DNA of 64,000 nucleotides from an uncultured Acidimicrobiia bacterium (GCA_963785035.1 CAWATG010000011.1:382553-446552); one strand, 5' to 3'. Positions 28,923-56,180 are shown, numbered from the stretch's first letter. Program-made: numbers and translations. The notes: generated from the letters alone by a model not told the origin.

Positions 28923-28951
28923 TTAAGTAGTAACCCCTTTTCTGCCGATAT
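28923..28951 (+). promoter_or_regulatory. Putative sigma-28 (FliA/WhiG-type) promoter of the minor-pilin operon
   Basis: TTAAG-N16-GCCGATAT in the relA/minor pilin intergenic region. Confidence 0.7.
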
Positions 28952-29025
28952 ATGCAGCGACTTGGTCTCAAGTCGGTTTCGTCTATCGAGGGCGCCCATA
29001 AGGTGCGGAAGTCGAGCAGTCAGGG

Positions 29026-30405
29026 ATGAAGCGATGCTCTCCTCGTCATGAGGGTCGGCGACGTCATGCTCCTCGCGTGCCTTTCGTCGGTGGATGCGAT
29101 GCAGCCGCGCGTGACGGTGGCTTCAGCATCGTTGAGGTCATCGTGGCGATCAGTGTGTTCGCGATCCTGGCGACCGGTGTCGCAACCACGGTTGGCGGCG
29201 GACTGGACCTGGCTCGTACCAACCGGAACCGCGATGTTGCGGCGAACCTTGCGAGCCAGGAGATGGACAGGATTCGCAGCATGCCGTTTGCCTCGCTCGT
29301 TGTTGGCCAGACGGTGAGCACCGAGACCGTCCAAGGGGTGGCGTACACCGTGACACGTGATGCGACCTGGGTGGCGTCGAACGCGACCGTTGGCGCGTGC
29401 GACTCGGCCGGTGGGATTCCCAGCCTCCTTCGGGTGGATGTCTTGCTGCGGTGGGCCAGCATGGGGACCATTACTCCGGTGAAGTCATCAACGGTGTTGA
29501 GCCCGCCGGTCGGCGCGTACGACGCGGACACGGGCCACATCGCGGTGAAGATCAGGGACCGCAATGCGCTTCCGGCATCGGGAATTCCGGTCACGATTTC
29601 GCCTGCGCCGCCCGTTCCACGGCCCGCGACGATCACTACCACCACCGACGGGTGCGCATTCTTCGACCATCTCCCGGCCGGTACCTATTCGGTGTCGGTG
29701 AACTCTTCAGGATGGGTGGATCGTCAGTCGATCGTGGGTCCGGCGCAGAGCGCCGGAGTGCTCACAGGGGCGACCGTCGCAGTCGGCTTCGATTATGACC
29801 AGGCGGCGGCGTTGTCGGTGACCATCGCGCCCGCCGGTGGCGGAGTCATCCCGAGCGACATTCCCATTTCTGTGGGAAACACTGCGCTCTTGCCCAACGG
29901 GATCAAGGTCTATGCCGGAACCGGTGCGACCCGGACGATCGCGAATCTCTTCCCTGCGGCGGATGGCTACGACCTGTGGGCGGGCTCGTGTTTCGACGCG
30001 GATCCTGCTGCGAACGATGGTGTCAGCGATGTCTGGCCGGGTGGTCAGCGGACGGTCAAGGGTGAGACCGATCCGCTCGCGACAGGGATCGTGACATTGC
30101 CGATTTCGAGCGTCAGCGTCCTGGTGACCGAGCCCGATCCGCTTCCCGGCCCGCCGGTTCCGCCTCCGTTGCCCGTTGCCGGCGCCACGGTGATCGCGAC
30201 ACATGCGCCGGACGCCGAGTGCCCATCGGGACAGACCTTCACCTTGGGCGTCACCGACGCCACTGGGAGCATCGTGGCGGGGCTTCCCTATGGCGAGTGG
30301 CAGATCGAGGTTGTGGGGAGTCCGACACCCCTTTCCGGCTGGCCAACTGCGACGCTCGACCCGACTGGCGCCACGGTGGTCTCGGCAACGGTGGAACTCT
30401 CATGA
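29026..30405 (+). CDS. Large minor pilin (PilV-like) with beta-sandwich (carboxypeptidase-regulatory-like) repeats
   Basis: Prepilin site G|FSIVEVIVA (E5) near 29122; TTDGCAFF..LPAGTYSV and TDATGSIVAGLPYGEWQI repeats. Confidence 0.8.
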   Translation: MKRCSPRHEGRRRHAPRVPFVGGCDAAARDGGFSIVEVIVAISVFAILATGVATTVGGGLDLARTNRNRDVAANLASQEMDRIRSMPFASLVVGQTVSTETVQGVAYTVTRDATWVASNATVGACDSAGGIPSLLRVDVLLRWASMGTITPVKSSTVLSPPVGAYDADTGHIAVKIRDRNALPASGIPVTISPAPPVPRPATITTTTDGCAFFDHLPAGTYSVSVNSSGWVDRQSIVGPAQSAGVLTGATVAVGFDYDQAAALSVTIAPAGGGVIPSDIPISVGNTALLPNGIKVYAGTGATRTIANLFPAADGYDLWAGSCFDADPAANDGVSDVWPGGQRTVKGETDPLATGIVTLPISSVSVLVTEPDPLPGPPVPPPLPVAGATVIATHAPDAECPSGQTFTLGVTDATGSIVAGLPYGEWQIEVVGSPTPLSGWPTATLDPTGATVVSATVELS

Positions 30406-31082
30406 CGAGGATGCAGCGCTTGGCGCGGCGAGCGATCCGCAACGCGCACGACGACAGCGGAACCTCCTTGGCGGAACTCGCAGTGACGATGCTGTTGTTG
30501 TCGGTGATCCTGGCTGTGTCCTACCAATCGGTTGGCTCGTTGTCCAAGGCCGTCGCCGGGACCGACCGGCGCGTGGAGAACCTCGGCGAAGCACGTCACC
30601 TGATGAAGGTCACCAGCCGTGATCTTCGGACAGCGACGCGACTCCAGGCCGGTACAGCCGCGTTCGTCACGGCGGACGCCAAGAACGTGATCTTTTACGC
30701 GAACCTCAACAACCCGACGAGCGGTCCGCGACGCGTTCGGATCTATGTCGACACGCAGACGCGCCTCATCGAGGAGGTGACTCCGCCGGACGCTTCCTCG
30801 GTGCCACCGAACTACACCTACCTGGTCGGGCCGGTCACTACTCGCCTCGTTGGAAGGTTCGTCGCGAACGCGCCGAGCCAGCCGATCTTCACCTATTACG
30901 ACGTGAACGGCACCCAACTGACCTCGGTTCCACTCAATGCCGCGGATCGGTTGGCCGTTCGACAGGTCAAGGTCGCACTGTCGATTCGCAGATCAACGGT
31001 GCTCAATGTCGGTCTGACGACACTCGAGAACCGGGTACGCCTTCCGAATCTCGACTACCAGACCGCACTGGCAGGCCCGTGA
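30402..31082 (+). CDS. Minor pilin (PilW/PulJ-like)
   Basis: DDSG|TSLAELAVTMLLL prepilin motif, RDLRTA helix, FTYYD; ATGA overlap with the upstream gene. Confidence 0.8.
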   Translation: MTRMQRLARRAIRNAHDDSGTSLAELAVTMLLLSVILAVSYQSVGSLSKAVAGTDRRVENLGEARHLMKVTSRDLRTATRLQAGTAAFVTADAKNVIFYANLNNPTSGPRRVRIYVDTQTRLIEEVTPPDASSVPPNYTYLVGPVTTRLVGRFVANAPSQPIFTYYDVNGTQLTSVPLNAADRLAVRQVKVALSIRRSTVLNVGLTTLENRVRLPNLDYQTALAGP

Positions 31083-32801
31083 TGTTGTACCGATGGGTCC
31101 GAAGTCGTGTCGATCCGGGAGTGCCCGGCGAGCCAAATCATGGCGAGGGTGGTATCGCACTGGTCGTGGTGATGCTCATGGTGGTCGCGCTGTTCACGCT
31201 TGCCGCCGCAACGGTGAGCTTCGCCGAGGGATCGCTCAACCTGTCCAAACAGGATCAGGACTGGAACGCGTCGCTGGCGGCCGCGGAGGCGGGCATCGAC
31301 GACTACATCCATCGCATCAACGAGAACGGGAACTACTGGATCTATTCGGCGTCGAGTCCGCCGCCCGACGGTAACGGGGCGTTCTCGGGATATGTGCCGG
31401 TCCCGGGAAGTTCGAGCAGCTCCAAGTTCCGTTACAGCGTTGACAGTTCCAAGATCACGGTCGACGGCACGCTCAAACTCACGTCGACCGGCAACGTCGG
31501 TGGTGTGAAGCGGACCGTTGGAGCGACGCTGCGTCGGCGTAGTTTCATCGACTATCTGTGGTTCACCGATTTCGAGACGCTCGACCCTGCGCTCTACGTC
31601 GGGTCGTCGTCGTCGTTCACCCCGGGCGGAGGCGCAGACCCGCTGTGCTCGCTATTACTACGGCCCGGTGGGTACTCGTCGCGATGTGAGCGGGGTCTCG
31701 GACTACTCCGGTGACACCAACACCAAGAACTGCGTCGACATCAACTTCATCACGGCCGACACCATCAACGGGCCTGCCCACAGCAACGACGCGTACTTGC
31801 GTTGCGGCGCACCGCGGTTCAACGGCGACACCTCGACGAGCTGGAACACGAGCGCACCTCGATACCGCACGAACACCAGCTGCTCGACTTCGCCGGCTCC
31901 GATATTCGCGAATGCCGGCGATCCGAGATACCTCCCAACGCTTCCGATCCCGCCGTCGAACTCCGCGATCAAGGTTGAGACGGCACCGTTGACCGCCGGC
32001 GGCTCCTACGGTGGATGTCTCTATACGGGCCCCACAAGTATCGTGCTCAATGCGGCGGGAACGATGACGGTGACCAGCCCGTTCTCGAAACAGACGAACA
32101 ATGGCTGCGTCACCTCCGGCACCGGTCCTCTTCCGGTCAACGGCGTGATCTATGTGCAGAACGTGCCTGCAGGGTCGAGCGATCCGAACTACACGGCGGG
32201 CTGTCCCTACAGCGTGCGATACGGCGGTATCGCGACCAATCCGCTGCGGGCGCATCCGCTCGGGTATCCGACGGCCAACGACACGGCATCGTATGACTGT
32301 CGTGCGGGGGACCTGTTCGTGGAGGGCACCCTCAAAGGCCAGCTCACGATCGCGGCGGACAACAACATCGTGGTGACCTGGCACCTCACGTACAACGGCG
32401 GTTCGACCGGTACCGATCTGCTCGGCCTCGTCGCGAACAACACCGTGCAGGTGTATCACCCGGTCAACAGCAGCGGCACCCTCCTCGATGTCCGGCCCGC
32501 CACGGGCGGGACGCAGACATTCTCCAATGCGCAGATCTTTGCCGCGCTTCTCTCGGTCCAACACTCCTTCTTCGTGCCGCGATGGGACAAGGGAGGCTCG
32601 CTCGGCGACCTGATCGTCACAGGCGCTATCGCGCAACGCTTCCGTGGTCCGGTCGGAACCACCGGTGGCAACGGCTACGAAAAGACGTACACCTACGACC
32701 AACGCCTGAAGTATCTCTCACCGCCGCGGTTCCTCAATCCGATCGCGTCGGCCTGGGCCGTCGCCGTCTGGGTCGAGCAGAAGACACCCGCTGGGCTCTG
32801 A
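31079..32801 (+). CDS. PilX-like minor pilin with large Cys-containing C-terminal domain (frameshift ~31625)
   Basis: EGG|IALVVV (no E5), AAAEAGI PilX motif, C-terminal YDQRL..SPP.F; ORFs 31079..31714 and 31518..32801 join into one protein. Confidence 0.78.
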
Positions 32802-32869
32802 ATCCCACTCTTGGATCGGCCAGGCCACGAGTGAGGCCGCGAGGGCCTGCCCGGTAGCATGCCCATCGC

Positions 32870-34168
32870 ATGAACGAATCCAAGGCTGGCGCCGACGTGT
32901 TCCGCGCGCCCATCGGCACCCACGACGTGCTGGCCCCGGCATCGAATCGGTGGATCGAGCTCGTCAGCCGATTTGCCGGCCTGGCGGCTCGTTATGGCTT
33001 CGGCTTGGCGATCACGCCCCTGTTCGAGCACCGCGAGGTCTTTGCCCGGGTTGGTGAAACGACCGACGTCGTACGCAAGGAGATGTACGACTTCGAGGAC
33101 AAGGGTGGCCGGGCGCTGGCGTTGCGCCCCGAAGGTACAGCGCCGATCGTGCGCGCCTATGTGCAGCACCGCCCGACGCCACCGTGGAAAGCCTGGTACC
33201 TCGCACCCAACTTTCGCTACGAACGCCCGCAGAAGGGCCGGTACCGACAGCACTACCAGCTCGGCGCGGAGGTCCTCGGCATCGACGATCCCGAAATCGA
33301 CGTCGAGATCATCGCGCTCGCGCATGCCTTCTATCGTGAGCTCGGTCTGACGGGTGTGCGGCTCCTGCTCAACTCGATGGGTGACGAACACAGCCGTCCG
33401 CGTTATCACGGCGCGCTGCGTGCCTACCTGCTTGACCACTGTGCCGAACTGGGCGAGGAGTTCGCCGCTCGCGTCGAGGCAAACCCGCTGCGGATTCTCG
33501 ATTCGAAGAATCCCGACTGGCGTGCAGTCACCGAAGGCGCGCCTGTCATCACCGACTTTCTCTCGGACGAATCGGCGGCGCATTTGGCGTCGGTCCAAGC
33601 CGGACTCGCCGAGCTGGGTATCGACTACGAGCCTGCGCCACGGCTCGTTCGCGGCTTCGACTACTACACGCGCACGGTCTTCGAGTTCGCTGCCGATGCC
33701 CTCGACGCCGCACAGAACGCGATCGGTGGCGGTGGTCGCTATGACCGGTTGGCAGAGGAGATGCACGGCCCACCAACGCCTGGTATCGGCTTCGGAATCG
33801 GTATCGAACGAGTGCTCCTGGCTTGTGATGCCGAGGAGGTGCTCGCGCCGCCGACAGCGACCGTCGACGCATTCGTCATCGATGCGCTGGAGCCTGATGC
33901 GCCCGTCGGCATGTCTTCGGCACTGGTGCTCGCTGCATTGCGATCACGGGGTATCGCCGCGGATCGTGCCTACGGCGGCCGTTCGGTGAAGGCGCAATGG
34001 AAGGTCGCCGACCGGTCCGGCGCACGATTCGGCGTGATGCTCGGCACCGCCGAGGCCGAGCGCGGCGCGGTTGGTGTCAAGGACCTGCGCAATGGTCGCC
34101 AGGTTGAAGTACGCCAGGAGGACGTTGTCTCCTGGATCGCCACTCGTCTCGAGGAGCAACGCCCGTGA
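32870..34168 (+). CDS. hisS: Histidine--tRNA ligase
   Basis: KEMY.F.D, LRPEGTA, FRYERPQKGRYRQH, LVRGFDYY, GGGRYD. Confidence 0.97.
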   Translation: MNESKAGADVFRAPIGTHDVLAPASNRWIELVSRFAGLAARYGFGLAITPLFEHREVFARVGETTDVVRKEMYDFEDKGGRALALRPEGTAPIVRAYVQHRPTPPWKAWYLAPNFRYERPQKGRYRQHYQLGAEVLGIDDPEIDVEIIALAHAFYRELGLTGVRLLLNSMGDEHSRPRYHGALRAYLLDHCAELGEEFAARVEANPLRILDSKNPDWRAVTEGAPVITDFLSDESAAHLASVQAGLAELGIDYEPAPRLVRGFDYYTRTVFEFAADALDAAQNAIGGGGRYDRLAEEMHGPPTPGIGFGIGIERVLLACDAEEVLAPPTATVDAFVIDALEPDAPVGMSSALVLAALRSRGIAADRAYGGRSVKAQWKVADRSGARFGVMLGTAEAERGAVGVKDLRNGRQVEVRQEDVVSWIATRLEEQRP

Positions 34169-35920
34169 TGCGCACCCACATGGCCGGCAAACTCGGCGCC
34201 ACCGACATCGGTACCGATGTCACGCTGTGCGGATGGGTCGCCAGCCGACGTGATCACGGTGGCGTCGTGTTCCTTGACGTGCGTGATGTCTCGGGCATCG
34301 TGCAGGTCGTCGTCGATCCGTCTCAGGCAGGCGGTGAGGACGCGCACCGTGTGCGTGATGAGTTCGTCGTTCGCATCACCGGCACGGTCCGGTCCCGACC
34401 CGACGGCACGCGTAATCCCGATCTTGCAACCGGTGACATCGAGGTGAGCAGCGTCGCCCTCGAGGTCCTTTCCGAGTCGGATCCGTTGCCGTTCCAACTC
34501 TCCCAAGCCGACGATGTCGACGAAGTCCTCCGACTGCGGCACCGTTATCTCGATCTCCGGCGTCCGCGACTCGCAGGCAACCTTCGGTTGCGCGCGAACG
34601 GTGAATCACGCGCTGCGCACGTCGATGGCCGCCCAGGACTTCACCGAGGTCGAGACGCCGATGCTGATCGCCTCGACTCCCGAGGGTGCGCGTGACTTCA
34701 TCGTGCCGTCACGGCTGACCCCCGGATCGTTCTACGCGCTTCCGCAGAGCCCACAACTGTTCAAGCAGCTCCTGATGGTCGGCGGGATCGATCGTTACTT
34801 CCAGATCGCCCGATGCCTACGCGACGAGGACCTGCGCGCAGATCGTCAATTCGAATTCATGCAGTACGACGCCGAGATGAGCTTCGCCGACCAGGAAGAT
34901 GTCATGGAGGTCGTGACTCGAGCCGTCGGCGATGCTGTCGAGGCGGCGACAGGCACTCGCCCGAATCCGTTCGCGACGATGACCTGGCGTGAGGCCATGG
35001 AGCGGTTCGGTTCGGACAAGCCCGATGTTCGATTCGCCATGGAGCTTGTCGAGCTCACCGAGGTGTTCGCGACGACGGAGTTCAAGGCATTCCAAAGTGA
35101 GGCCGTCAAAGGAATCCTCGTCTCGGGCGAGGGCGGTGTCTCACGCTCGAAGCTCGACAACCTCACCGATCGCGCCAAGCAACTCGGTGCGGCAGGCCTG
35201 GTCTGGATGCGTGTCGAGGCTGGTGGAACCCTCAATTCCCCGGTGGCCAAGTTCTGCTCCGAGGACGAGCAGCGCGGCATTGTCGAAGCGCTTGGTGCAC
35301 GCGAAGGCGATCTTGCGCTCCTGGTGGCGGGGGAGCGCCGCGTGTGCAATCACGTGTTGGGAGTGCTTCGCCTCGATCTGGGACGGCCTCCGGTCAATGA
35401 GGGCGGCCTCCACTTCCTGTGGGTCGTCGACTTTCCGTTGTTCGAGGGTCTGGCCAGTGACGGCGCGCCGATTCCTGCGCATCACCCGTTCACGATGCCG
35501 CACCCCGACGATCTTGCGATGCTTGAAACCGCGACCGGCCCAGAACTGCTGGCGGTCCGCTCACAGGCCTATGACCTCGTCCTCAACGGCTGGGAGCTCG
35601 GTTCGGGCAGTGTTCGAATCCACCGTGGGGATCTCCAGGCGAGAATCTTTGCGCTGTTGGGTATCGGGGCGGAGGAGGCACAGGCGCGGTTCGGATTCCT
35701 GCTCGACGCCTTCCGCTTCGGTGCGCCACCACATGCCGGTTTTGCCTTCGGCGTCGACCGACTCGTCGCGCTCCTCGCCGGTGAGGAGAACATTCGCGAG
35801 GTCATCGCCTTCCCGAAGACGCAGTCGGGCCATGACCCGCTCACGGGCGCGCCGACCGTCGTCGACCCCACACTCCTGCGGGACGTCGGTATCAGCGTGT
35901 TGGCGCCCCGCAAGAAGTAG
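34165..35920 (+). CDS. aspS: Aspartate--tRNA ligase (frameshift ~34597)
   Basis: MRTH, RDHGG, RYLDLRR, TPEGARDF, LPQSPQLFKQ, HHPFT, GAPPHAG, VIAFPK. Confidence 0.97.
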
Positions 35921-35948
35921 CAATCGGTGCGCTCGCTAACCTTGGCGC

Positions 35949-37298
35949 ATGGCCGAAAACCTCTTCGCGAGTGCGGTCGAAACGCGCCTGGCGCAGCGCG
36001 CGCCGCTCGCTGCGCGCATGCGGCCTCGAGCACTCGATGAGATCGTCGGCCAACGACATCTGATCGGACCGGGTCAGCCTCTTCGGACGTTGATCGAATC
36101 GGACCGGCTGTTCTCCGTGGTCCTGTGGGGGCCGCCCGGGACCGGGAAGACCACGATCGCGCGCGTTGTCGCAGGAGTATCGGAACGGTATTTCGAACCG
36201 CTCTCGGCCGTCACCGCCGGCGTGAAGGACGTCCGCGATATCGCCGAACGTGCGCGGGCGCGTCTGGGTGAGCACGGGCGAGGAACGATCCTGTTTCTCG
36301 ATGAGGTGCACCGCTTCAGTCGTACGCAACAGGATGCGCTGTTGCCCCATGTCGAGGAAGGCTTGTTCGTCCTGATCGGTGCGACGACCGAGAATCCGTT
36401 CTTCTCGTTGACGGCGCCGTTGCTCTCTCGCTCGACGTTGTTTCGTCTGGAGCCCATCGTCGCGGAAGACCTCGCGAGGCTGGTGCGGGCAGCGCTGGAG
36501 GAGGAACGCGGCCTGGGCGCCGACAAACTCAGCATCGACGACGACAGCCTGGCCCACCTTGTCGACCAGGCCGAGGGCGACGCTCGCCACCTCCTGACCT
36601 CGCTCGAAGTCGCCGCGGCACTTGCGCTCGAAGCGGAACGCAGCACGATCAGCGTCGGCGACGCGGAGGCCGCGTTGGCGATGCGCGTCATCCGTTACGG
36701 CGCCGATGACCACTACGACGTCGTCTCGGCGTTCATCAAGAGCATCCGTGGTTCCGATGTCGACGCGGGTCTGTACTGGTTGGCTCGGATGCTCGAAGCG
36801 GGCGAGGACGCTCGCTTCATCGCGCGTCGGCTCGTCATCCTGGCGTCGGAGGACATCGGAATGGCCAACCCGCTGTCGTTGCTGATCGCCGAGTCAGCCG
36901 CGCGTGCGGTCGAGTTCGTCGGACTCCCCGAGGCGCAACTGAATCTCGCGCAGGCGGTGATCCATCTTGCGACCGCCGCAAAATCCAACTCTGTCACGAC
37001 CGCACTTGGCGCCGCGTTCGCGGATGTGCGCGATCGTCCCTCGGGTGCGGTGCCTGCTCACCTTCGGGACGCGCATTTTGCCGGCGCAGCGAAACTTGGC
37101 CACGGCAAGGGTTACCAGTACCCTCACGACGCGCCCGGCGGCTGGGTCGACCAGCAGTACCGGCCCCCGGAGTTGGCGGGCAGGCGGTATTACCAACCTG
37201 GTCCACACGGGGCCGAAGCTGCGATTGCCGCAGCGTGGTCGCAGCGCCGCTCCGCTGGATTGGCGATGGATGCAAGCATCGAAGAACCGGAGCGCTGA
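35949..37298 (+). CDS. rarA: Replication-associated recombination protein A
   Basis: PLAARMRP, GPPGTGKTT, DEVHRF, GATTENP, SAFIKSIRGSD. Confidence 0.96.
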   Translation: MAENLFASAVETRLAQRAPLAARMRPRALDEIVGQRHLIGPGQPLRTLIESDRLFSVVLWGPPGTGKTTIARVVAGVSERYFEPLSAVTAGVKDVRDIAERARARLGEHGRGTILFLDEVHRFSRTQQDALLPHVEEGLFVLIGATTENPFFSLTAPLLSRSTLFRLEPIVAEDLARLVRAALEEERGLGADKLSIDDDSLAHLVDQAEGDARHLLTSLEVAAALALEAERSTISVGDAEAALAMRVIRYGADDHYDVVSAFIKSIRGSDVDAGLYWLARMLEAGEDARFIARRLVILASEDIGMANPLSLLIAESAARAVEFVGLPEAQLNLAQAVIHLATAAKSNSVTTALGAAFADVRDRPSGAVPAHLRDAHFAGAAKLGHGKGYQYPHDAPGGWVDQQYRPPELAGRRYYQPGPHGAEAAIAAAWSQRRSAGLAMDASIEEPER

Positions 37299-37660: not shown

Positions 37661-37675
37661 GAGCAGAAGGTAGCG

Positions 37676-37951: not shown

Positions 37952-38040
37952 GGTTGGGGCAGCAGCGGTGGAGCCATGGATCCGCCGAGGTCGCGGAGCG
38001 GGTGTCGGGGATCGGGGGTTTCTGGCGGTAGCCTGAACCT

Positions 38041-46878: not shown

Positions 46879-46906
46879 TCAAGGTTTGGGCTCCGATCGC
46901 CGATAT
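46879..46906 (+). promoter_or_regulatory. Putative sigma-28-type promoter of pilT-pilC (probably leaderless transcript)
   Basis: TCAAG-N15-GCCGATAT, ATG 6 nt downstream. Confidence 0.75.
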
Positions 46907-46912
46907 GTGGGC

Positions 46913-48451: not shown

Positions 48452-48468
48452 GGCGAGGAGTCCACGAC

Positions 48469-49689
48469 ATGGCAACGACATTTGCATACAAGGTTCGGGA
48501 TCGCAACGGCAAGATCGTCGAAGGCGAGCTCGAGGGCGACAGCTTGGTCCTCGTGACCGGAAAGCTTCGGACGATGGGCTACACGCCCATTTCGATCCAG
48601 CAGCAGGACGCCTCGAAACTCAAGACCGAAATCAAGATCCCCGGATTTTCCAACCGGATCAAGCTCAAGGACGTGGCCGTCTTCTCGCGTCAGTTCGCGA
48701 CGATGATCAACTCCGGCCTCTCGATGCTGCGTGCGCTGACAATCCTCTCGGAACAGACCGAGAACAAGGAGCTTGGCAGGGTTGCCGGTGAGGTCCGCCT
48801 CGACGTTGAGCGCGGCAGTTCCCTGTCAGGCGCGCTGTCTCGCCACCCGAAGGCGTTCAACCGGCTCTATGTCTCGATGGTCAAGTCGGGCGAGGCCGGC
48901 GGTGTGTTGGACTCGGTGCTGATGCGTCTCGCCGACACGATCGAGAAGCAGGTGGAGCTTCGCCGCAAGATCAAATCCGCGATGACCTACCCGGTCGTTG
49001 TGGGCTTCCTCGTGTTCGCCATCGCAGGCGCGATGATCGTCTTCGTGGTCCCGATGTTCGGGAACATCTACAAGGATCTCGGCGGCACGCTGCCGTTACC
49101 GACACGGGTGCTGCTGAAGGTCTCCGAGATCGTGCGCAAGTTCGTGATTCTGTTGGTGATGGCCGGAATCGGAATTGTCGTCGGGCTGCGGAAGTGGGTC
49201 AACACCCCGTCGGGTCGTCGTCAGTGGGATGCGTTGAAGTTGCGCATTCCGGTGTTCGGCGGACTCGTGCGAAAGACCGCGTTGGCTCGTTTCTCTCGCA
49301 CGCTCGCCGCATTGACGCGCTCGGGCGTTCCGATTCTGGAGTCGCTCGAGATCGTTGCCGATACAGCCGGCAACGAGGTCGTCGCCGACGCGGTGCGCGA
49401 TACCCAGGCTGCGGTGAAGGGCGGCGAGTCACTCGCGAAGCCGTTGGAGCGCCATGAGGTCTTCCCGCCGATGGTTGTGCAGATGATGGCGGTGGGTGAG
49501 GAGACCGGTGCGCTCGACGAGATGCTCGACAAGATCGCGGACTTCTACGACCAGGAGGTCGAGGCGACCGTTGACGCGCTGACCTCGCTGATCGAACCGC
49601 TACTGATCGTGGTGATGGGTCTCACCGTCGGAGGCATGATCATCAGTTTGTACATGCCGATGTTCAACATCGTGAAGCTCATCGAATAG
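48469..49689 (+). CDS. pilC: Type IV pilus platform protein (T2SS F family)
   Basis: FSRQFATMINSG, GEAGGVLD, KSAMTYP, GEETGALDEML, LIEP; RBS GAGGAG. Confidence 0.96.
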   Translation: MATTFAYKVRDRNGKIVEGELEGDSLVLVTGKLRTMGYTPISIQQQDASKLKTEIKIPGFSNRIKLKDVAVFSRQFATMINSGLSMLRALTILSEQTENKELGRVAGEVRLDVERGSSLSGALSRHPKAFNRLYVSMVKSGEAGGVLDSVLMRLADTIEKQVELRRKIKSAMTYPVVVGFLVFAIAGAMIVFVVPMFGNIYKDLGGTLPLPTRVLLKVSEIVRKFVILLVMAGIGIVVGLRKWVNTPSGRRQWDALKLRIPVFGGLVRKTALARFSRTLAALTRSGVPILESLEIVADTAGNEVVADAVRDTQAAVKGGESLAKPLERHEVFPPMVVQMMAVGEETGALDEMLDKIADFYDQEVEATVDALTSLIEPLLIVVMGLTVGGMIISLYMPMFNIVKLIE

Positions 49690-49710
49690 CGGCGAGGCCC
49701 GCCTCGAGTA

Positions 49711-50929
49711 TCACGGGGCGCCCTGGTGGAGGCGGTGACTGTGAAACAGGCCGCGCTCAGCCGATGTGAGCACGCTCGCCGCGCAGATGATGATGAACCA
49801 GGGGGCGAGGCCGGCGCCGAAAACCTCTGCGCCCATCACCACGCACGCGATCGGTGTGTTGGCTGCCCCGGCGAAGACCGCGACGTAGCCGAGCATGGCG
49901 AACAGCGGAATCGGTGCACCGAGCCAATCGCCGAGCGTGACACCCGCCGTCGCGCCCATGACGAAGAGCGGGGTGACCTCGCCTCCCTGAAAGCCGCTTC
50001 CGAGGGTCACTGCGGTGAGGACGAGCTTCCACGCGAAGGCGAACGTAGCGATGCCGACGCCGCCTGCGAGCGACGCCTCCACCAGATCGGTCGAGGCGCC
50101 GAGATATTCGCGAGTTCCGACGATTCCGGTCAGGGCGATGATCGCCAAACCGCCGATTGCCAAACGGAGCGGCGGGTACTGCAGGAGGTGGCCGAGCACC
50201 TTCTGGATCCGATGGGTGAGGCCGACGAACGAAGCCGCAAGGAGCCCGCACGCCAGCCCGGCGAGCGCGACCTTCACAACGAGCAGCGCTGATACGTCGA
50301 AGTCGGGCCGAGTGCTGAGCACGTCCTCGTGGAGCCCGAATCCGCGCACGATGCGAGCGGCGACGAACGCCGCCGCGAGCGCAGGAACAAAAGCGCCGTA
50401 GCGGCGGTGTCCGCGTGCCTGGACCTCGAGAGCGAATACCGCGCCCGCGACAGGCGTACCGAACGCGCCGCCGAAAGCACCGGCCACGGCCGTGACCAAG
50501 ACCAGGCGCCGGTCGTCGCGGTCGAGTCGCAGCATGCGGGCCATCGCGTCGCTGAGGCTCCCCGCCATCTGTATCGCGACGCCCTCACGTCCGGCCGAAC
50601 CGCCGAAGAGATGCGTACTCACGGCTGCTACCAGCACGAAGGGCGCCATGCGACGCGGCACCCACGCGCGGCTCGTGGATCTCGTCGATGATCAGGGCGT
50701 TGCCATGGCGCGCGTCGCCCGCGAAGTGGTGGTAGATCGCCCCCATCGTCAACCCGGCCACCGGCAGGATCCACAACATCCAGGAATGCGCGAGGCGGGT
50801 TCGGGTCGCCCAGGAGAGGCCCTCGAGGAAGGCCGAGACGGCGAGACCGGAGACGGCGCCGACCAGTACACCGAGCCCGATGCCCCGAGCGGTGCGCCGA
50901 GCGGCACGCGCCGGGAACCATCGCCACAT
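49711..50929 (-). CDS. CLC-family channel, CLC-F-type fluoride/proton antiporter (frameshift ~50665)
   Basis: GNALII, GGSAGREGVA, GGEVTP, ANTP motifs; ORFs 50585..50941 and 49711..50661 join. Confidence 0.85.
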
Positions 50930-51004
50930 CCCGAAAGTCACGTTATCGGCCGTATCGGGGTGAAATGCGCAGGTTCAAATAGCCCGAAGGTTCCCAACGA
51001 GTAC

Positions 51005-51033
51005 TCAAGGTCCCCTCGGGAACTGGCCGATAG
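51005..51033 (+). promoter_or_regulatory. Putative sigma-28-type promoter of pilA
   Basis: TCAAG-N16-GCCGATAG. Confidence 0.75.
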
Positions 51034-51039
51034 GGATTT

Positions 51040-51136
51040 TGACGGATCGGAGCCTGCCTTTACGCGAATCGTCGAGCGGTCCCGACGCCCCAAGGTCGAG
51101 GTCACTCGTACCAACTGAGGCAGGGTCGAGACGTCA
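51040..51136 (+). ncRNA. Candidate structured cis-regulatory RNA in the pilA 5' UTR
   Basis: Nested complementary segments TGACG/CGTCA, TCGG/TCGA, CCTGCCT/AGGCAGG, inner CGTCG/CGACG and CGAG/CTCG. Confidence 0.4.
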
Positions 51137-51181
51137 CTGACATCACTATCAACCAAACCTACCCAGCTAGAGGAGCACCAG

Positions 51182-51714
51182 ATGATTGACACCCTGCGAG
51201 CCATTCGGGCGAAGCGGGATTCCGAGGACGAGGGTTTCACCCTCATCGAGCTCATGGTGGTCGTACTCATTATTGCGATTCTCATCGCGATCGCCATCCC
51301 GACCTTCCTCGGCGCCCGTACCAAGGCCAACGACCGCGCTGTGCAGTCCAACCTGCGCAACGCACACTCCAACGCAAAGACCGTGTTCACCGACTCGGAG
51401 GACTACGGCACCACCGCCGCCCTCGTGACGGCGCTGGGTGCTGCTGAGCCTGCGTTGACCTATTCAGGGACTGCTGACACCGCATCCACGGCACCGAAGG
51501 AGGTCTCGGTGAACGTTCCGGCGTCGTGGCTCCCGCTGTCGGCGACCACCGTCTACATGGCGGGTCTTTCGAAGAGCGGCGACTGCTTCGCCGTCCGCTC
51601 GCAAGACGGCACCGGTGGGTTGGGCACCAAATTCGCCAAGGTTCCCTCCGGGTCGGCCTGCACCGGTGCGGTTGCTGCCGGCTTGGCCGCGAGTCGTGGT
51701 CGGACAAGTGGTAG
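51182..51714 (+). CDS. pilA: Major type IV pilin (probable frameshift ~51690; called ORF runs to 51739)
   Basis: EG|FTLIELMVVVLIIAILIAIAIPTF, RBS GAGGAG, C-terminal Cys pair (GDCF...SACT). Confidence 0.93.
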
Positions 51715-51767
51715 ACGCACGGGCGTGATCAGCGTTTGATCACGAGCTGTGTGCGAACTGCGAAACA

Positions 51768-51808
51768 CGTCGGCGCCCGGGATGGAACGTTCCTCCCGGG
51801 CGCCGACG
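51768..51808 (+). terminator. Strong hairpin downstream of pilA (terminator or mRNA stabiliser)
   Basis: Perfect 15-bp inverted repeat CGTCGGCGCCCGGGA / TCCCGGGCGCCGACG; no U-tract; a second hairpin CGTGATCA/TGATCACG at 51724-51744. Confidence 0.7.
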
Positions 51809-51871
51809 CGATCGCACCACGCAGCTGGACGGATCGCCGTCTCCCACAGCATCGCTGCCTAGCCTTCGATC

Positions 51872-52654
51872 ATGGATCCCAACACCTTCCTCACCATCGC
51901 CGCGGGAATCCTCGGGCTCCTCGTCGGATCGTTTCTCAACGTCGTGATCTGGCGTGTCCCGCGTGGCGAATCGGTGGTCGCGCCCCGCTCGCAATGTCCC
52001 GTCTGCGCCGCGCAGCTCCGCGCCATCGACAACGTTCCTGTCATCTCGTGGCTCGTGCTGCGGGCGCGGTGTCACCATTGCGGTGCGCACATCTCTCTTC
52101 GCTACCCGCTCGTCGAGCTCGGATGTGGCGCCCTGTTCGCCGCCGTCGGCGCCGAGTATGCAGAGTCCTGGGCCATGCCGGCGTACCTCGTGTTCGCCGG
52201 CGCGCTGCTTGCGCTGTCGGTCATCGACATCGAGCACTATCGGTTGCCGAACAGGATCGTCTACCCGCTCTCGATCGTTCTGCCCGTATTGGTCGGTGTC
52301 GCTGCGATCGCGGATCACGATCTCGGCGGGTGGGGGAGAGCCCTCGCTGCAGGGGCGGCGGCATTCACGGGAATGCTGGTGCTGCATCTCATCTCGCCCA
52401 AGGGCATGGGACTCGGCGACGTCAAGCTCGCGTTCTCGCTCGGTGTCGCGCTCGGGTGGCTCGGATGGGTCGAGCTCATGCTCGGGCTGGTGCTCGGATT
52501 CCTCTACGGAGCGGTGATCGGCGTGTTCCTGATTGCCACGAAGCTGCGGGGCCGGCGCGATCCCGTTCCGTTCGGTCCGTTCCTCGCCGCCGGCGCGATG
52601 ACCATGGTGCTCTGGGGTGCGCCCATCGTCGATTGGTACACGGGGCGCGGATAG
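51872..52654 (+). CDS. pilD: Prepilin peptidase (A24)
   Basis: GSFLNVVIWRVP, two CxxC motifs, RYPLVE, GMGLGDVKL, VPFGPFL. Confidence 0.96.
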   Translation: MDPNTFLTIAAGILGLLVGSFLNVVIWRVPRGESVVAPRSQCPVCAAQLRAIDNVPVISWLVLRARCHHCGAHISLRYPLVELGCGALFAAVGAEYAESWAMPAYLVFAGALLALSVIDIEHYRLPNRIVYPLSIVLPVLVGVAAIADHDLGGWGRALAAGAAAFTGMLVLHLISPKGMGLGDVKLAFSLGVALGWLGWVELMLGLVLGFLYGAVIGVFLIATKLRGRRDPVPFGPFLAAGAMTMVLWGAPIVDWYTGRG

Positions 52655-52684
52655 CACGACGCCCCATCTCTGCAAACGGGAGAT

Positions 52685-52801
52685 GTTGCGCAAGGGGAAT
52701 AAGTTGCGCATTATGACCAAAGTGCAAAAGAGTCGCTTTGAGTCGCTCAAACACTCAATTTGAGCGTCAGATTGACGATTGTTGTCAGTGAAGCCTACTG
52801 T
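52685..52801 (+). promoter_or_regulatory. AT-rich regulatory region with repeats and a sigmaA-like promoter
   Basis: GTTGCGCA x2, GAGTCGCT x2 at 10-bp spacing, TTTGAG-N3-CTCAAA palindrome, TTGACG-N18-TACTGT. Confidence 0.6.
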
Positions 52802-52829
52802 TGACCGAGTTGCTTGAAGGGCGGGGGTC

Positions 52830-53033
52830 GTGACTCCTGAGCATCGTCTACTCACCGTTAGTGAGGTCGCTGATGCGATGCGGGTTTCGACGATGACTAT
52901 TTATCGGTTGATCAGGGCCGGGGAAATCGGGGCAATACGCGTGGGGCGCCATTTTCGGATTCGTGAGGCGGACCTTTCCGCGTATCTCGACGCGCAGACC
53001 GTGAAAGGAGACGGATCATGGCCCGCCGCCTGA
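52830..53033 (+). CDS. Excisionase/BldC-like HTH DNA-binding protein
   Basis: LLTVSEVADAMRVSTMTIYRLIRAGEIGAIRVGRHFRI; overlaps the pilM start. Confidence 0.88.
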   Translation: MTPEHRLLTVSEVADAMRVSTMTIYRLIRAGEIGAIRVGRHFRIREADLSAYLDAQTVKGDGSWPAA

Positions 53034-54790
53034 TCGGTCTCGACATCGGCACGAATGCCGTCACGGTCACCGAGGTCGAGGTCGGCAATCCGGCGACGCT
53101 GCGAGTGTTCGGCCAGGTCGCGCTGCCTCGCGACGTCATGCGCGAAGGCGAGATCGTCGACGTCGAGGTCGTCGCGAGCGCAATTCGTCGCCTCTGGCGC
53201 GAGGTCGGTCTGAAGAAGGGCGCGGTCCGCGTTGGCATCGGTACGCCGCGTCTGATCGTTCGTCCGGTCGAGCTTCCCGAGATGAACGAGGCCGATCTTG
53301 CAGGCGCGCTGCAGTTCCAAGCGCAAGATCTGATCCCGATACCGCTCGATGACGCGTACTTCGATTTTCAGGTGCTCGGCGCTGGCATCGATCCCGAAGG
53401 CAATGCCACCACGCGGGTCTTGCTTGCAGCAGCGCCACGAGAAACGATCACGCGCATCGTCGCGGCGGTCGAGTCCGCCGGGCTGAGTGTCGAAGCCGTC
53501 GACCTCGTCCCTCTCGCGCTCGTGCGCAGCCTCGCGACACCGGTCGATCCTGGCGCCGAACCCAGCGCCGAGGCGATTGTCTGCGTCGGTGCGGGTGTCA
53601 CGGTCGTCGTCGTGCACGAGTCGGGGAGCCCACGCTTCGCGCGAGTGTTGGGCTCCGGCGGGCGTGCCCTGACCGAAGCAATCGCAACCGACCTCGACCT
53701 CGCGTTCGAGGCGGCAGAGGCGCTGAAACGTCAAGGGATCAACACCGATGACGAGATCGGCGCTCGTGCACGCAGTGCAATCGAGGGTCCGCTCAACTCT
53801 TTGCTCGAAGATGTCCGCAGCTCGCTCGAGTTCTACCGCGCCCAGTCGGGCGGCGCCGAGGTCAAATCGGTGCTCCTCAATGGCGGTGGTTCACAACTGG
53901 TCGGTCTCGCCGACCGTCTCGAGACGGTGCTCGGTCTTCCCGTTACTCGGGCACATTGTCGATCACGGCTCGCGATCGGTGACATCGGCTTTGCTCCTGA
54001 CGAGTACGAGATGCTGGACCCGTACCTCTCCGTACCGGTTGGACTGGCATTCGGCGCAACGTCGACGGGACGAGCGATCGACCTGTCCCCGCCGAAGGAC
54101 CGGGGCGCGGCTGATCGGCGCAAGTTGGTGGCCGTCGTCGTGGTGATCGCACTTCTCTTGTTGGGCGGTCTGGGTTTCCTCACTGCGTCGCAACGAACGA
54201 AGCGGTCCGACCAACAAGCGCTCCTCGATCAGGAACGCGACACGAATGCCGCGGTCCAGGCAAAGATCGACGAGCTCGCGACCTTCGAAGCCCAACAGGC
54301 GCAGATCGACGTGATTCAAGGTCAGATCGCGGCGCTGTTGGCAACGGACGTCTCGTGGTCCCGCTTGCTCGAGGACATCGCGATGAAGATGCCGCAGAAC
54401 GATTGGTTGAGTTCGTTCCAGGGTACGGTCACCGCGGCGGCTCCCGCTGCTCCAGCGCCGGTTGCTCCTGCGCCAAGTGACGAAGGCTCGACGAGCACGA
54501 CGGGTACGACGAGCACGACGGTCCCTGCCGTTCCGGCACCAGCGGCCGCTGGGCTGTCCGGAACGGTGAGTATGACGCTCACCGGGAGAGACTTCACCGA
54601 CGTCTCGCAATGGCTCCTTCGGATGGCAGAGATCCCATCCCTGACCGATGTTTGGGTCCCAACTTCGACGAAGTCGGTGTCCGATGGTGGTTCCCAACAG
54701 ACGGTGTCGTTCTCCTCGACGGCGAAGATCACACCTCAGGCGAAGGCAACACGCAGTGAGCTCCGACAGAAGCTGAAGGTCGGACAATGA
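53018..54790 (+). CDS. pilM: Fused type IV pilus PilM-PilN protein
   Basis: IGLDIGT actin-like start, LNGGGSQL, PVGLAFG, then IDLSP + TM + coiled coil + VSWSRLL..MP..WL PilN domain. Confidence 0.88.
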   Translation: MARRLIGLDIGTNAVTVTEVEVGNPATLRVFGQVALPRDVMREGEIVDVEVVASAIRRLWREVGLKKGAVRVGIGTPRLIVRPVELPEMNEADLAGALQFQAQDLIPIPLDDAYFDFQVLGAGIDPEGNATTRVLLAAAPRETITRIVAAVESAGLSVEAVDLVPLALVRSLATPVDPGAEPSAEAIVCVGAGVTVVVVHESGSPRFARVLGSGGRALTEAIATDLDLAFEAAEALKRQGINTDDEIGARARSAIEGPLNSLLEDVRSSLEFYRAQSGGAEVKSVLLNGGGSQLVGLADRLETVLGLPVTRAHCRSRLAIGDIGFAPDEYEMLDPYLSVPVGLAFGATSTGRAIDLSPPKDRGAADRRKLVAVVVVIALLLLGGLGFLTASQRTKRSDQQALLDQERDTNAAVQAKIDELATFEAQQAQIDVIQGQIAALLATDVSWSRLLEDIAMKMPQNDWLSSFQGTVTAAAPAAPAPVAPAPSDEGSTSTTGTTSTTVPAVPAPAAAGLSGTVSMTLTGRDFTDVSQWLLRMAEIPSLTDVWVPTSTKSVSDGGSQQTVSFSSTAKITPQAKATRSELRQKLKVGQ

Positions 54791-55527
54791 ATCGCCGGCC
54801 GCTCTTCATTGCGCTCGGGGTTCTTGTTGCCGTTTCGGTCGCGTGGTACTTCCTGGTGATCAAGCCCGTCAGCTCCGACGTCACCGAGCTCAAGGACAAC
54901 GTGGCCATCGCGAAGGCCGAGGGGCAGGAACAACGTGTTCGGCTCGGTCGCCTCGAGAATCTGCGCAACGCCGCAGGTACCGCAACCGACATCAACCGGG
55001 TCATCGATCAGCTCGTGCCTGCGCAAGCCGACCTCGCGAACTTCTTGAATGCGGCAACGTCAATTCAATACGACACCGGCGTCGACTGGCTTTCGATCAG
55101 CCCGGCGCCGCCGGCAGCCAATCCGGCGGGTGGTCCGAGCGTGATTGGATTGTCGATCTCCATCGAGGGGACGTTCTACGACCTGCTCCAGTACCTCGAC
55201 GCTCTCCAAGATCCCAAGCAGATGCCGCGATTGGTCGTTGTCGAAGGCTTGAGCATCAGCGCGGCCGGTGGGACCGAGACGGCGGCGGCGGGCGTGTCGC
55301 CGACGCTGTCGGTTTCGCTGAGCGCCAAGATGTTCACGCGCTCACCGGCAGCAGGGCTCGGTGGAGCCGCCTCGGGTTCCACCGCAGCGCCGGGTGCAAC
55401 GACGCCGGGAACCTCCACCTCTTCACCGGGAGCATCGACGTCTTCGCCGGGAGCCTCGACACCGGCGACAGCCGTCCCGCCGGCATCGAGTTCGAGTTCC
55501 ACGAGCAGCGGAGCAGCGCCGTCATGA
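54787..55527 (+). CDS. pilO: Type IV pilus PilO-like protein
   Basis: TM (WYFLVIKP), coiled coil, VP..A..FL, GTFYDLLQYL, PRLVVV; S/T-rich tail. Confidence 0.82.
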   Translation: MNRRPLFIALGVLVAVSVAWYFLVIKPVSSDVTELKDNVAIAKAEGQEQRVRLGRLENLRNAAGTATDINRVIDQLVPAQADLANFLNAATSIQYDTGVDWLSISPAPPAANPAGGPSVIGLSISIEGTFYDLLQYLDALQDPKQMPRLVVVEGLSISAAGGTETAAAGVSPTLSVSLSAKMFTRSPAAGLGGAASGSTAAPGATTPGTSTSSPGASTSSPGASTPATAVPPASSSSSTSSGAAPS

Positions 55528-56180
55528 CCCCCGAACGCCGCCGCCTCACCATTCTGCTCAGTGTGCTGGGCGTCGTCATCGCCGCGGTCGGGGCATTTGT
55601 GCTCTTCTCCGGAAGCGATGACACGGACTCGACTGCTCCGACGCTGAACCCGAGCGGTGGCCCGTCGACGATCAGCACCAATCCAGGGAGTCCGCTGTCG
55701 TCGCAGGTCCCCACGACGACGACGCTTCCGGTTCGGGTCGTGACGGGCAACATCGCAGATCCGTTTGCTCCGAAGTTCGTTCCCATGTCGGCGTCACCCG
55801 CGGTGCCGGGCACGCCGGCGCCGACCGGTACGAGCACGACGTCGACGACGACCACGACAGGCCCAACCGGGGGAACGTCCGTCACGACCACGACGACGGG
55901 TGCTCCGGCGACGACAGCGCCGCCTACGTCGATCCCGGCAACCCAGGGCAAGGCGGCGCCGATTCCGGTGCCGACCATGTCGATCGCACTCATCGACATC
56001 TATGGCCAGGATGGGACGCTCCACGCGCAAGTGCGCGTGTCCAACAAGACCTACACCCTTGTCGCAGGCGACGCCTTTGCCACGAGTCTCAAGCTCGTTG
56101 CTCTTGACGGAAGCTGTGGGCAATTCCTCTTCGGCGACTCGCCCTTCAAGTTGTGCAAGGGCGAGGAGGCGTTCAAGTAG
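55524..56180 (+). CDS. Membrane-anchored Thr/Pro-rich protein, PilP-like position
   Basis: N-terminal TM, DPFAP motif, T/P linker, small beta domain with a Cys pair; ATGA overlap with pilO. Confidence 0.7.
   Translation: MTPERRRLTILLSVLGVVIAAVGAFVLFSGSDDTDSTAPTLNPSGGPSTISTNPGSPLSSQVPTTTTLPVRVVTGNIADPFAPKFVPMSASPAVPGTPAPTGTSTTSTTTTTGPTGGTSVTTTTTGAPATTAPPTSIPATQGKAAPIPVPTMSIALIDIYGQDGTLHAQVRVSNKTYTLVAGDAFATSLKLVALDGSCGQFLFGDSPFKLCKGEEAFK

Follow-up and report, generated by a model that had tools for sequence, protein, structure and literature searches.

Predicted sigma-28-type promoters, most likely read by WhiG, precede the pilin and motor genes of a two-locus type IVa pilus system in an Acidimicrobiia bacterium

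How might a bacterium whose type IV pilus genes lie in two blocks, separated by ~10 kb of housekeeping DNA, switch both blocks on together? The question is raised by a 64,000-nt stretch of DNA from an uncultured Acidimicrobiia bacterium (GCA_963785035.1, CAWATG010000011.1:382553-446552; our G000:C11:382553-446552), here called the window and numbered from its first letter, in which positions 28923 to 56180 hold the genes of a type IVa pilus (T4aP) system. Acidimicrobiia are abundant, mostly uncultured bacteria of water and soil, and the type IVa pili of Actinomycetota have barely been studied. With a probability of about 0.7, we read the system as a conserved Acidimicrobiia T4aP built for a single-membrane envelope, whose structural and motor genes are turned on by a sigma-28-family factor, most likely WhiG. 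A review of monoderm pili lists only Tad-type pili for Actinomycetota (PMC6916266).

The genome, G000, is a 2.85-Mb, 15-contig, 92%-complete assembly, and the named homologues of the window proteins were all labelled as metagenome-assembled genomes of Acidimicrobiia, Actinomycetes or Actinomycetota. Locus 1 consists of three minor-pilin genes between relA (26604-28874) and hisS (32870-34168). Locus 2 sits between aroE (42282-43148) and aroC (56190-57413), in the order PATAN gene, pilB, MshEN-pilT, pilC, a CLC-type gene on the minus strand, pilA, pilD, a helix-turn-helix (HTH) gene, pilMN, pilO and a pilP-like gene. The segment between the loci carries hisS, aspS, mgsA, a DUF948 gene, alaS, ruvX, mltG and aroE. 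Unless stated otherwise, the window features described below lie on the plus strand.

Four copies of one motif were found in the window, each near a start codon and each fitting the sigma-28 (FliA/WhiG) consensus T(A/C)AA-N16-GCCGATAA (PMC12871210). Ahead of the minor-pilin operon, P1 (28923-28951) joins a -35 element TTAAG (28923-28927) over N16 to a -10 element GCCGATAT (28944-28951). P2 (43193-43221), ahead of PATAN-pilB, is made up of TCAAG (43193-43197), N16 and GCCGATCA (43214-43221); it is followed by AGGAGG at 43232-43237 and ends 25 nt ahead of the GTG start codon (43246). Between pilB and MshEN-pilT, the latter followed by pilC, lies P3 (46879-46906; TCAAG, N15, GCCGATAT), and because the ATG (46913) comes 7 nt after its -10 element, the MshEN-pilT transcript is probably leaderless. 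P4 (51005-51033; TCAAG, N16, GCCGATAG) stands ahead of pilA-pilD, with a predicted 5' untranslated region (UTR) of ~140 nt. An earlier note, made from this DNA alone, had described one promoter motif common to both loci; the analysis confirmed it, with four copies in the window instead of two, far above chance. We read the shared motif as a sigma-28-type (FliA/WhiG) promoter.

Counts over the whole genome supported this reading. The exact pattern TCAAG-N14-17-GCCGATA occurred eight times in G000, and neither in the reversed genome nor in any of five third-order Markov simulations. With at most one mismatch there were 74 sites, versus 14 in the reversed genome and 36-52 in the simulations, and 36 of the 74 fell in the 14% of the genome classed as non-coding by a crude codon-usage gene caller. 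In the window alone, a search with a related pattern gave two matches versus 0.17 expected, a number reached by 4 of 100 shuffles. Half of the eight exact sites precede pilus or cyclic di-GMP (c-di-GMP) genes, namely pilA, MshEN-pilT, a second, canonical pilT (C5:654761-653414) and a PAS-GGDEF-EAL gene. Others precede a GAF-domain gene, the gene of a CAP-domain secreted protein and that of a 564-residue protein assigned to no family; an exact site inside an acyl-CoA dehydrogenase-like open reading frame (ORF) was taken as chance. One-mismatch sites were found before the flagellin gene at C5:550940 (TCAAG-N15-GCCGATTG, at C5:550821) and ahead of a second GGDEF-EAL gene, and those before housekeeping genes (secA, glnA, fumarase, P450) were treated as noise or unverified. 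Further one-mismatch sites, at C11:240565, C11:243099, C4:657639 and C4:665781, each coincide with or adjoin the 5' end of another GGDEF-domain gene match; the two matches on C11 are in tandem.

The motif was followed through 40 relatives from 23 families of the same order, which together with G000 make 41 genomes. Read by eye as (C/T)TCA(A/G)G-N14-16-(G/A/T)(C/T)CGAT, with a looser -35 element, it was seen ahead of pilA in 14 of the 17 relatives' loci with a recognisable pilin, ahead of MshEN-pilT in 14 of 18, ahead of minor pilin A in all 14 relatives with upstream sequence, and ahead of the PATAN gene in 19 of 19 (20 of 20 with the window). Since these readings were made after the motif was known, the sites were recounted under one fixed rule (TCAAG with at most one mismatch, a spacer of 14-17, GCCGATA with at most one mismatch and CGA fixed). 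Under this rule, upstream sites were present for pilA in 12/17 relatives, MshEN-pilT in 9/18, minor pilin A in 12/13 and PATAN in 18/19, the relatives being non-independent samples; the background in these loci, taken over the other 518,768 nt on both strands, was 51 matches, or 0.02 per 200 nt. Spacers vary while both elements and their positions persist, so the pattern resembles a promoter footprint. In Rubrobacter marinus, a member of another class, CTAAAG-N15-GCCGATAAG occupies the same place between pilB and pilT. The co-regulation proposed in the earlier note is supported, and more strongly than that note could tell: relatives in the order keep a sigma-28-type site ahead of each of these four transcription units.

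Which sigma factor would read these promoters? G000 encodes a WhiG equivalog, scoring 363.2 bits against NF004935 (cut-off 343) and 273-274 bits against TIGR02479 (cut-off 189.6), whose gene lies between xerC-like and M23-peptidase genes. It also encodes a 175-residue homologue of RsiG (C5:521684-522208), which matches PF22802 over two stretches with 64.5 bits (cut-off 27) and bears the twin motifs ExxxSxxRxxxQxxxE and ExxxSxxRxxxHxxxD. The reference motif, which we take to be ExxxSxxRxxxQxxxD, had no exact match in any ORF, and the homologue was found by a relaxed pattern and then by Pfam. A high-scoring WhiG-type sigma was found in all 41 genomes, RsiG in 40 and FlhA in 12; because WhiG and RsiG are this widespread and flagella are found in only 12 genomes, WhiG is the likely sigma factor. 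Among the 19 PATAN-pilB relatives, 12 gave no FlhA match; all 12 keep the promoter, and nine encode just one sigma of the sigma-28 family. Judged by gene content, WhiG is the only candidate reader in those nine genomes; in G000 the promoters may be read by the flagellar sigma as well.

Two observations on the surroundings of these regulators may be added. An XRE-family HTH gene (HTH_3, 2e-12) lies 5 nt downstream of rsiG on the same strand, and a gene for a secreted M23-like peptidase lies upstream. The flagellar cluster of G000 (C5:~540000-578000) looks complete and contains two flagellin genes, its own FliA-like sigma and several internal sigma-28-like sites.

The flagellar sigma factor is the obvious competitor. 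Were a FliA-type factor of the 'WhiG1' clade to read the pilus promoters, pili and flagella would be co-expressed, with no c-di-GMP input at transcription. A second FliA-like sigma gene does lie directly upstream of the flagellin gene, which itself stands behind the motif; in Actinoplanes, where RsiG is absent, WhiG-like flagellar sigmas transcribe both the pilus and the flagellar genes (PMC8325347), and the consensus sequences of the two sigmas overlap (preprint PMC12871210). However, the promoter is kept in the 12 relatives without an FlhA match, nine of which have only the high-scoring WhiG-type gene, RsiG was found in 40 of the 41 genomes, and the flagellar sigma gene of G000 is split over two frames, which may be an assembly error. 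We therefore regard this explanation as unlikely. A more radical alternative, that the repeated motif is no promoter at all and reflects either chance likeness or the site of another DNA-binding protein such as the cluster's small HTH protein, could appeal to the motif having been first defined from these same loci. It is hard to reconcile with a fit to an independently published consensus, with eight exact copies against none in six control sequences, with enrichment in non-coding DNA, and with sites that point to downstream genes and keep their position across at least 20 genomes while the spacer sequence varies; we consider it very improbable.

What the machine is used for is a separate matter, and it could be mainly a DNA-uptake (competence) or adhesion pilus instead of a twitching one, its sigma-28 link serving as a starvation or dispersal switch. 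ComEC is encoded in G000 (PF03772, 158.9 bits), the free-living relatives within Acidimicrobiia have small genomes and inhabit water, soil or groundwater, and in Actinoplanes the pili of the zoospores are used for adhesion (PMC8325347). That there are two PilT paralogues, each with a sigma-28 promoter ahead of it, speaks for active retraction, although retraction serves DNA uptake too. We hold this reading to be possible and rather doubtful.

Several points weigh against the assignment of the pilus promoters to WhiG, and against the promoters themselves. The presence of a second FliA-like sigma inside the flagellar cluster, next to a flagellin gene that shares the pilus motif, means that the pilus promoters of G000 could be read by one sigma, by the other or by both, and a published regulon survey likewise could not separate the two (PMC12871210). 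Each copy of the G000 RsiG motif is one position off the reference that we assume. The -10 element of P2 (GCCGATCA) and the -35 element of P1 (TTAAG) are each one base off, the pilT site is kept in only half of the relatives under the fixed rule, and the HTH-pilMNOP operon stands outside the motif set. No RNA runs were listed for window positions 46001-56000, and the genome is in 15 contigs, 92% complete and affected by indel errors.

The exception of the HTH-pilMNOP operon is itself a conserved feature. In the window the sigma-28 motif is absent upstream of the HTH gene, and a housekeeping-type promoter (TTGACG, N18, TACTGT) was found there at 52772-52801. A comparison of the 21 of 30 loci in which the HTH gene follows pilD, the window's own included, identified TTGAC(G/T)-N18-TA(C/G)(T/C)GT, often in the form TTGACGATTGTT...TACTGT, in most loci with the HTH gene; some relatives have an additional sigma-28-like element farther upstream. 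The simplest reading of these sequences is that the membrane platform would be made from a housekeeping-type promoter, with the pilins and motors being switched. Just upstream of the TTGACG element lie a direct repeat, GAGTCGCT, at 52730-52737 and 52740-52747, and two palindromes, TTTGAGTCGCTCAAA (52737-52751) and CTCAATTTGAG (52754-52764). These elements resemble operator sites, possibly ones bound by the small HTH protein; no obvious conservation of 52730-52764 was seen in the relatives.

Both motor ATPases carry MshEN-type N-terminal domains, as the earlier note had stated, near-canonical on PilB and deviant on PilT. The extension ATPase PilB (44371-46854, 827 residues) matches TIGR02538 with 715.7 bits (cut-off 675.65), the MshEN family over two stretches and the c-di-GMP motif model NF053729 with 53.1 bits (cut-off 38). 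Compared with the motif in its relaxed form, which spans 24 residues and reads [RKPN]hGxxhhxx[GAS]hhxxxxhxxxhxx[QNKRYWST] (Wang 2016, PMC5013675), it has two MshEN motifs around a 5-residue spacer, the second perfect and the first off at two positions. Its length, against open frames of ~563-620 residues in relatives, is accounted for by duplication of the N1 (T2SSE_N) sub-domain around an acidic linker, a low-complexity segment at about residues 160-320.

The retraction ATPase (46913-48451, 512 residues) is a fusion of an N-terminal domain (residues 8-160) to a PilT core (163-502). The core scores 484.8 bits against TIGR01420 (cut-off 319.1) and has the Walker A motif and AIRNLIRE. The N-terminal domain matches PF05157 (2.7e-9, 37.3 bits, cut-off 23.1) and, marginally, NF053729 (40.1 bits, cut-off 38), and in a search of PDB sequences the first 160 residues aligned to the N-domains of PilF (5.9e-33), PilB (7.4e-16) and MshE (3.8e-11). 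Both 24-residue motifs fail in this domain: among 111 homologues of at least 480 residues, His replaces [GAS] in motif I in 111/111 and Pro replaces Gly in motif II in 101/111. Such very strong conservation points to a selected, divergent MshEN-type domain, and because both ligand motifs deviate we file it as MshEN-type and not as a proven c-di-GMP receptor. That c-di-GMP or a related ligand acts directly on both motors in this lineage is a tentative proposal, in which we place limited belief. If so, the N-domain of MshEN-PilT could gate retraction by second messenger; alternatively it could be a PilB-type docking domain that competes with PilB for the PilM/PilC platform.

The fusion is not confined to the window. 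Full-length MshEN-PilT was present in 18 of the 40 relatives at 69-79% identity, and five more had the core and an N-terminal piece in separate frames. A word-indexed search with the N-domain matched 219 proteins. When 300 genomes were sampled evenly across the phylum, with nine unpublished genomes in the overall tally, 22 had a full-length match, in families of Acidimicrobiia and other classes, none of the 22 in an unpublished genome; five more matched from residue 62-64 onwards, one of them in the unpublished genome G121. The accessible literature on MshEN with PilT, or on actinobacterial MshEN, held no description of the fusion, supplementary tables lying outside that search, and the word PilT does not occur in the main text of Wang 2016 (PMC5013675), whose supplementary tables were likewise not covered.

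Directly ahead of pilB lies the gene of a PATAN protein (43246-44292, 348 residues; PF14332 over residues 21-127, 1.5e-12, 48 bits, cut-off 25), found in 21 of the 40 relatives. The PATAN domain is the one also called DUF4388; in Synechocystis, response regulators that carry it interact with the pilus motor. The window protein has no REC domain and is therefore not a PatA-type response regulator; it is likely a PilB-associated regulator. Given WhiG, a twin-motif RsiG, MshEN-type domains on both motors and a PATAN gene before pilB, the earlier note's description of the programme as signal-controlled is a reasonable inference.

Directly after pilO lies a gene for a 218-residue PilP-like protein (55524-56180), whose N-terminal transmembrane helix is joined by a Thr/Pro-rich linker, in which an (N/D)PF motif is conserved, to a beta domain of the PilP/GspC 'HR' kind at the C-terminus. 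In an alignment of 15 proteins, the window copy included, the PF of the linker motif was invariant. The protein matched no Pfam family (E <= 0.05) or NCBIfam model, and a profile of the 15 homologues retrieved no PilP or GspC chain among PDB sequences at E <= 10. The AlphaFold2 model built on this alignment had a predicted local distance difference test (pLDDT) above 90 at residues 150-218 and low values elsewhere. A structure search other than Foldseek, over 48,161 chains, placed the HR domain of GspC first (3oss_C; Z 9.6, root-mean-square deviation 2.2 over 62 residues), followed at ranks 2-8 by GspB (8.5), PilP (8.4, 2ivw; 8.1, 3jc8_Pa; 8.0), LspC (7.4), Pseudomonas aeruginosa PilP (7.4) and the HR domain of PulC (6.5), with unrelated folds starting at Z ~6. 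Foldseek ranked the same families first, but with E-values of 0.018-0.14, and ESM Atlas gave sub-threshold leads only (0.85-0.87), some of them to T2SSB/GspB clusters.

Because predicted fold, architecture and gene position agree, we call the protein PilP/GspC-like, a name that does not extend to family membership by sequence. The gene was found in 21 of the 40 relatives, 3.5-4.5 kb downstream of pilD. The profile found nothing in R. marinus at E <= 0.01, and may be too narrow with 15 homologues. According to a review, it is logical that monoderms, having no secretin, lack PilP (PMC6916266). In G000 a search with PF00263 gave no secretin match anywhere in the 92%-complete genome, the same search having matched in six known control genomes, so the absence of secretin from the window, reported in the earlier note, extends to the whole assembly. 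If the modelled fold is right, a PilP/GspC fold in a genome without secretin would imply another partner for the HR domain in the monoderm envelope.

These parts can be assembled into a working model, largely by analogy. At low c-di-GMP, WhiG would be free and the pilins, both motors, PilC and PilD would be transcribed; at high c-di-GMP, RsiG-(c-di-GMP)2 would sequester WhiG, as in Streptomyces and Rubrobacter. The membrane platform (HTH-pilMNOP) would be made constitutively, and feedback would arise from the GGDEF-EAL genes that stand behind sigma-28-type promoters. On the machine itself, c-di-GMP bound to the N-domain of PilB might modulate extension, after the work on MshE and PilB, and the PATAN protein probably docks on the motor; more speculatively, the MshEN-type domain of PilT and the PATAN protein might tune which motor engages the platform. 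PilD would cut the 18-residue leader of PilA at G|F, and PilT would make the fibre retractile. If ligand control of both motors were true, it would, together with WhiG-RsiG, place extension, retraction and gene expression under one signal.

The closest precedent is Rubrobacter radiotolerans/R. xylanophilus (Schumacher et al. 2021, PMC8325347), in which 12 promoters have been mapped as targets of an (RsiG)2-(c-di-GMP)2-WhiG switch; the pil cluster holds three of them, and five others stand ahead of diguanylate cyclase or phosphodiesterase genes. As there, sigma-28 promoters lie in the pil cluster (four here) and further ones before GGDEF/EAL genes, and both WhiG and RsiG are present in a unicellular actinobacterium. 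Unlike there, RsiG here is of the twin-motif type and not a single-motif dimer, the pil genes are in two blocks around a 10-kb housekeeping segment, and flagella are encoded as well; in R. marinus, PilT is matched only over residues 163-511, with no match to an MshEN-type N-domain. Twin-motif RsiG is reported for three of four Acidimicrobiales (PMC8325347). The zoospore pili of Actinoplanes missouriensis (Kimura et al. 2019) are likewise T4aP under FliA/WhiG-family sigmas in a cell with flagella, but that organism lacks RsiG and is filamentous and sporangium-forming.

The machine differs from known ones in several respects. The PilB motifs and spacer and the alignment of the PilT N-domain resemble MshE/PilB receptor domains (Wang et al. 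2016, PMC5013675; PMC11656802); in the present system the domain is fused to a retraction ATPase as well. The PilP-like protein follows pilO and has a membrane anchor, a disordered linker and a small C-terminal beta domain, as PilP/GspC HR proteins of double-membrane bacteria do, but its anchor is a transmembrane helix and not a lipoprotein signal, it has no PilP match at the sequence level, and the 92%-complete genome yielded no secretin. As in the monoderm T4aP of Firmicutes (Streptococcus sanguinis, Clostridium; PMC6916266), PilA, B, C, D, M, N, O and T and minor pilins occur without outer-membrane parts; the sigma-28 promoters, PATAN gene, MshEN-PilT, PilP-like gene and two-block relA-hisS...aroE-aroC layout set the present system apart from these.

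The earlier note had left room for this architecture having been described already, and that is so in part: control of this kind has been published for Rubrobacter and Actinoplanes (PMC8325347), whereas descriptions of the MshEN-PilT and PilP-like variants were not found in the accessible literature. On Acidimicrobiia type IV pili that literature at most lists pilus genes, the supplementary tables of PMC8325347 and PMC12871210 not being covered. For Acidimicrobiia, pil genes appear only as list entries in a genomic survey of UBA5794 (PMC12008989), and a 2026 preprint predicts pilus targets in five other families, the string 'Acidimicrobi' not occurring in its main text (PMC12871210). The regulatory core is accordingly a new lineage for a known circuit, combined with two conserved machine variants that were not found described. 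Phylogenetic footprints, rather than one genome, would extend the WhiG-RsiG-c-di-GMP pilus switch from Rubrobacter to an entire order within the Acidimicrobiia, and the two variants bear on motor exchange at the platform and on roles of PilP beyond secretin binding. A cultured relative with the same cluster, IMCC26256 (complete genome CP011489), makes these questions testable.

Family scans bore out the complete monoderm T4aP gene list claimed in the earlier note (PilA, B, C, D, T, MN, O, P-like and minor pilins) and, with the coordinates, its two-way split over the relA/hisS and aroE/aroC intervals; its DUF4388 gene (PF14332) and HTH gene (HTH_17) were likewise recovered. PilB/PilC/PilD, the T4a-specific PilMNO sub-complex, a major pilin with a class III signal peptide, minor pilins and PilT are present and secretin was not found, the combination that defines a monoderm T4aP. 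The classes of gene that the note had named as informative elsewhere in the genome (fliA/whiG, flagellar, chemotaxis, GGDEF/EAL and comEC) are all found in G000; besides ComEC and the flagellar cluster, it has 13 GGDEF matches and two genes for methyl-accepting chemotaxis proteins.

In locus 1, the PilV-like minor pilin A (29026/29077-30405, 459 or 442 residues depending on the start) has the processing site G|FSIVE and a carboxypeptidase-regulatory-like beta domain (N_methyl 1.7e-5; CarboxypepD_reg 6.7e-8; TIGR02532 21.6 bits, cut-off 16.3); its match to the PilV model TIGR02523 (1.9e-5) is under the cut-off, and it was matched in 18 of the 40 relatives. Minor pilin B (30402-31082, 226 residues), whose start overlaps the stop of minor pilin A, had no family match in the Pfam scan; its translation gives a prepilin-like N-terminus, G|TSLAE, and orthologues in G001 and G019 share 44-54% identity. 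The third gene (31079-32801, ~573 residues) was identified by sequence reading as that of a PilX-like large minor pilin or tip protein. Here it occupies two frames, 31079-31714 and 31518/31668-32801, split by a 1-nt indel near 31624.

In locus 2, the platform protein PilC (48469-49689, 406 residues) matches T2SSF over two stretches (3.4e-68); PilC-specific models reach 1.8e-136, yet under their cut-off. The major pilin PilA (51182-51739, 185 residues; N_methyl 3.1e-7; TIGR02532 31 bits, cut-off 16.3) begins with the leader MIDTLRAIRAKRDSEDEG|FTLIE, of 18 residues and ending at G|FTLIELMVVVLIIAILIAIAIP, and its N-terminus is near-identical among relatives. The prepilin peptidase PilD (51872-52654, 260 residues; A24_N_bact 5.1e-34; Peptidase_A24 1.3e-14) was found in 39 of the 40 relatives. 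The small excisionase/BldC-like HTH gene (52830-53033, 67 residues; HTH_17 2.3e-16; TIGR01764 67.2 bits, cut-off 28.8) overlaps the start of pilMN, a position conserved in relatives. The PilM-PilN fusion (53018-54790, 590 residues) matches PilM_2 (1.6e-41) and TIGR01175 (184.3 bits, cut-off 133), its presumed PilN part being recognised by a transmembrane segment and a coiled region after residue 355. PilO (54787-55527, 246 residues) matches T2SSM_b (1.9e-5) and PilO (1.9e-4).

The structured pilin leader proposed in the earlier note did not hold up. The region 51040-51190 had a folding z of -0.54, 55 of 200 shuffles folding as well or better, and at gathering thresholds no part of the window matched an Rfam family. 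Among relatives, the predicted 5' UTR of pilA ranged from 54 to 221 nt in length and z from -3.3 to +0.3 (14 loci, mononucleotide shuffles), and a conserved structured element was dropped from consideration, none having been found across these loci.

The gene order is shared well beyond this genome. In G001, of the same family, and G019, of another, we found secF-relA-[three minor-pilin genes]-hisS-aspS-mgsA-DUF948-alaS-ruvX-mltG-aroE-[block 2]-aroC-aroKB, block 2 consisting of PATAN, pilB, MshEN-pilT, pilC, pilA (one or more), pilD, HTH, pilMN, pilO and pilP-like genes. G021 has block 2 and no minor-pilin block between relA and hisS. Another 17-30 kb measure describes their spacing: 10 relatives have minor pilin A and MshEN-pilT that far apart on a single contig, with the loci in the order and orientation seen here; in G031 the distance is ~110 kb. 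The earlier note had made its proposal depend on the two loci occurring together in relatives, as they do in these 10. As far as gene order tells, the two-block layout is shown to be ancestral within the order and not peculiar to this genome. The pilMN-pilO-pilP-like genes (from 53018) run directly into aroC and an aroK-aroB fusion (576 residues with SKI and DHQ synthase domains; to 59156). In many Proteobacteria pilMNOPQ is followed by aroK-aroB, and if that arrangement holds, the pilMNOP-aroKB neighbourhood may be very old.

Six genes each read in two frames. Three of these, aspS, the PilX-like gene and the CLC gene, belong to the window; the other three, flhA (C5:575008-576970), the flagellar sigma gene (C5:549902-550556) and the second pilT (C5:653414-654761), lie outside it. 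Both aspS and the PilX-like gene are single-frame in G001 and G019. The region 31500-51400 was compared with contigs derived from short reads, from four runs of two studies; in all four runs they had one base fewer at 31624, one fewer at 34596 and two extra behind 50664, the last of which would return the CLC gene to one frame. Because the short-read contigs differ at exactly those three sites, the three window frameshifts are probably assembly indels and not pseudogenes.

The CLC-type chloride-channel gene itself (49711-50941, minus strand; Voltage_CLC 2.8e-58) lies between pilC and pilA. It was not found at this position in G001, G019 or G021 and is present in near-identical metagenome contigs. 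In G001, block 2 has insertions of ~11 kb between pilB and MshEN-pilT (C1:1775916-1786770) and ~13 kb between pilC and the pilins (C1:1789565-1802948), and three pilin genes stand in tandem.

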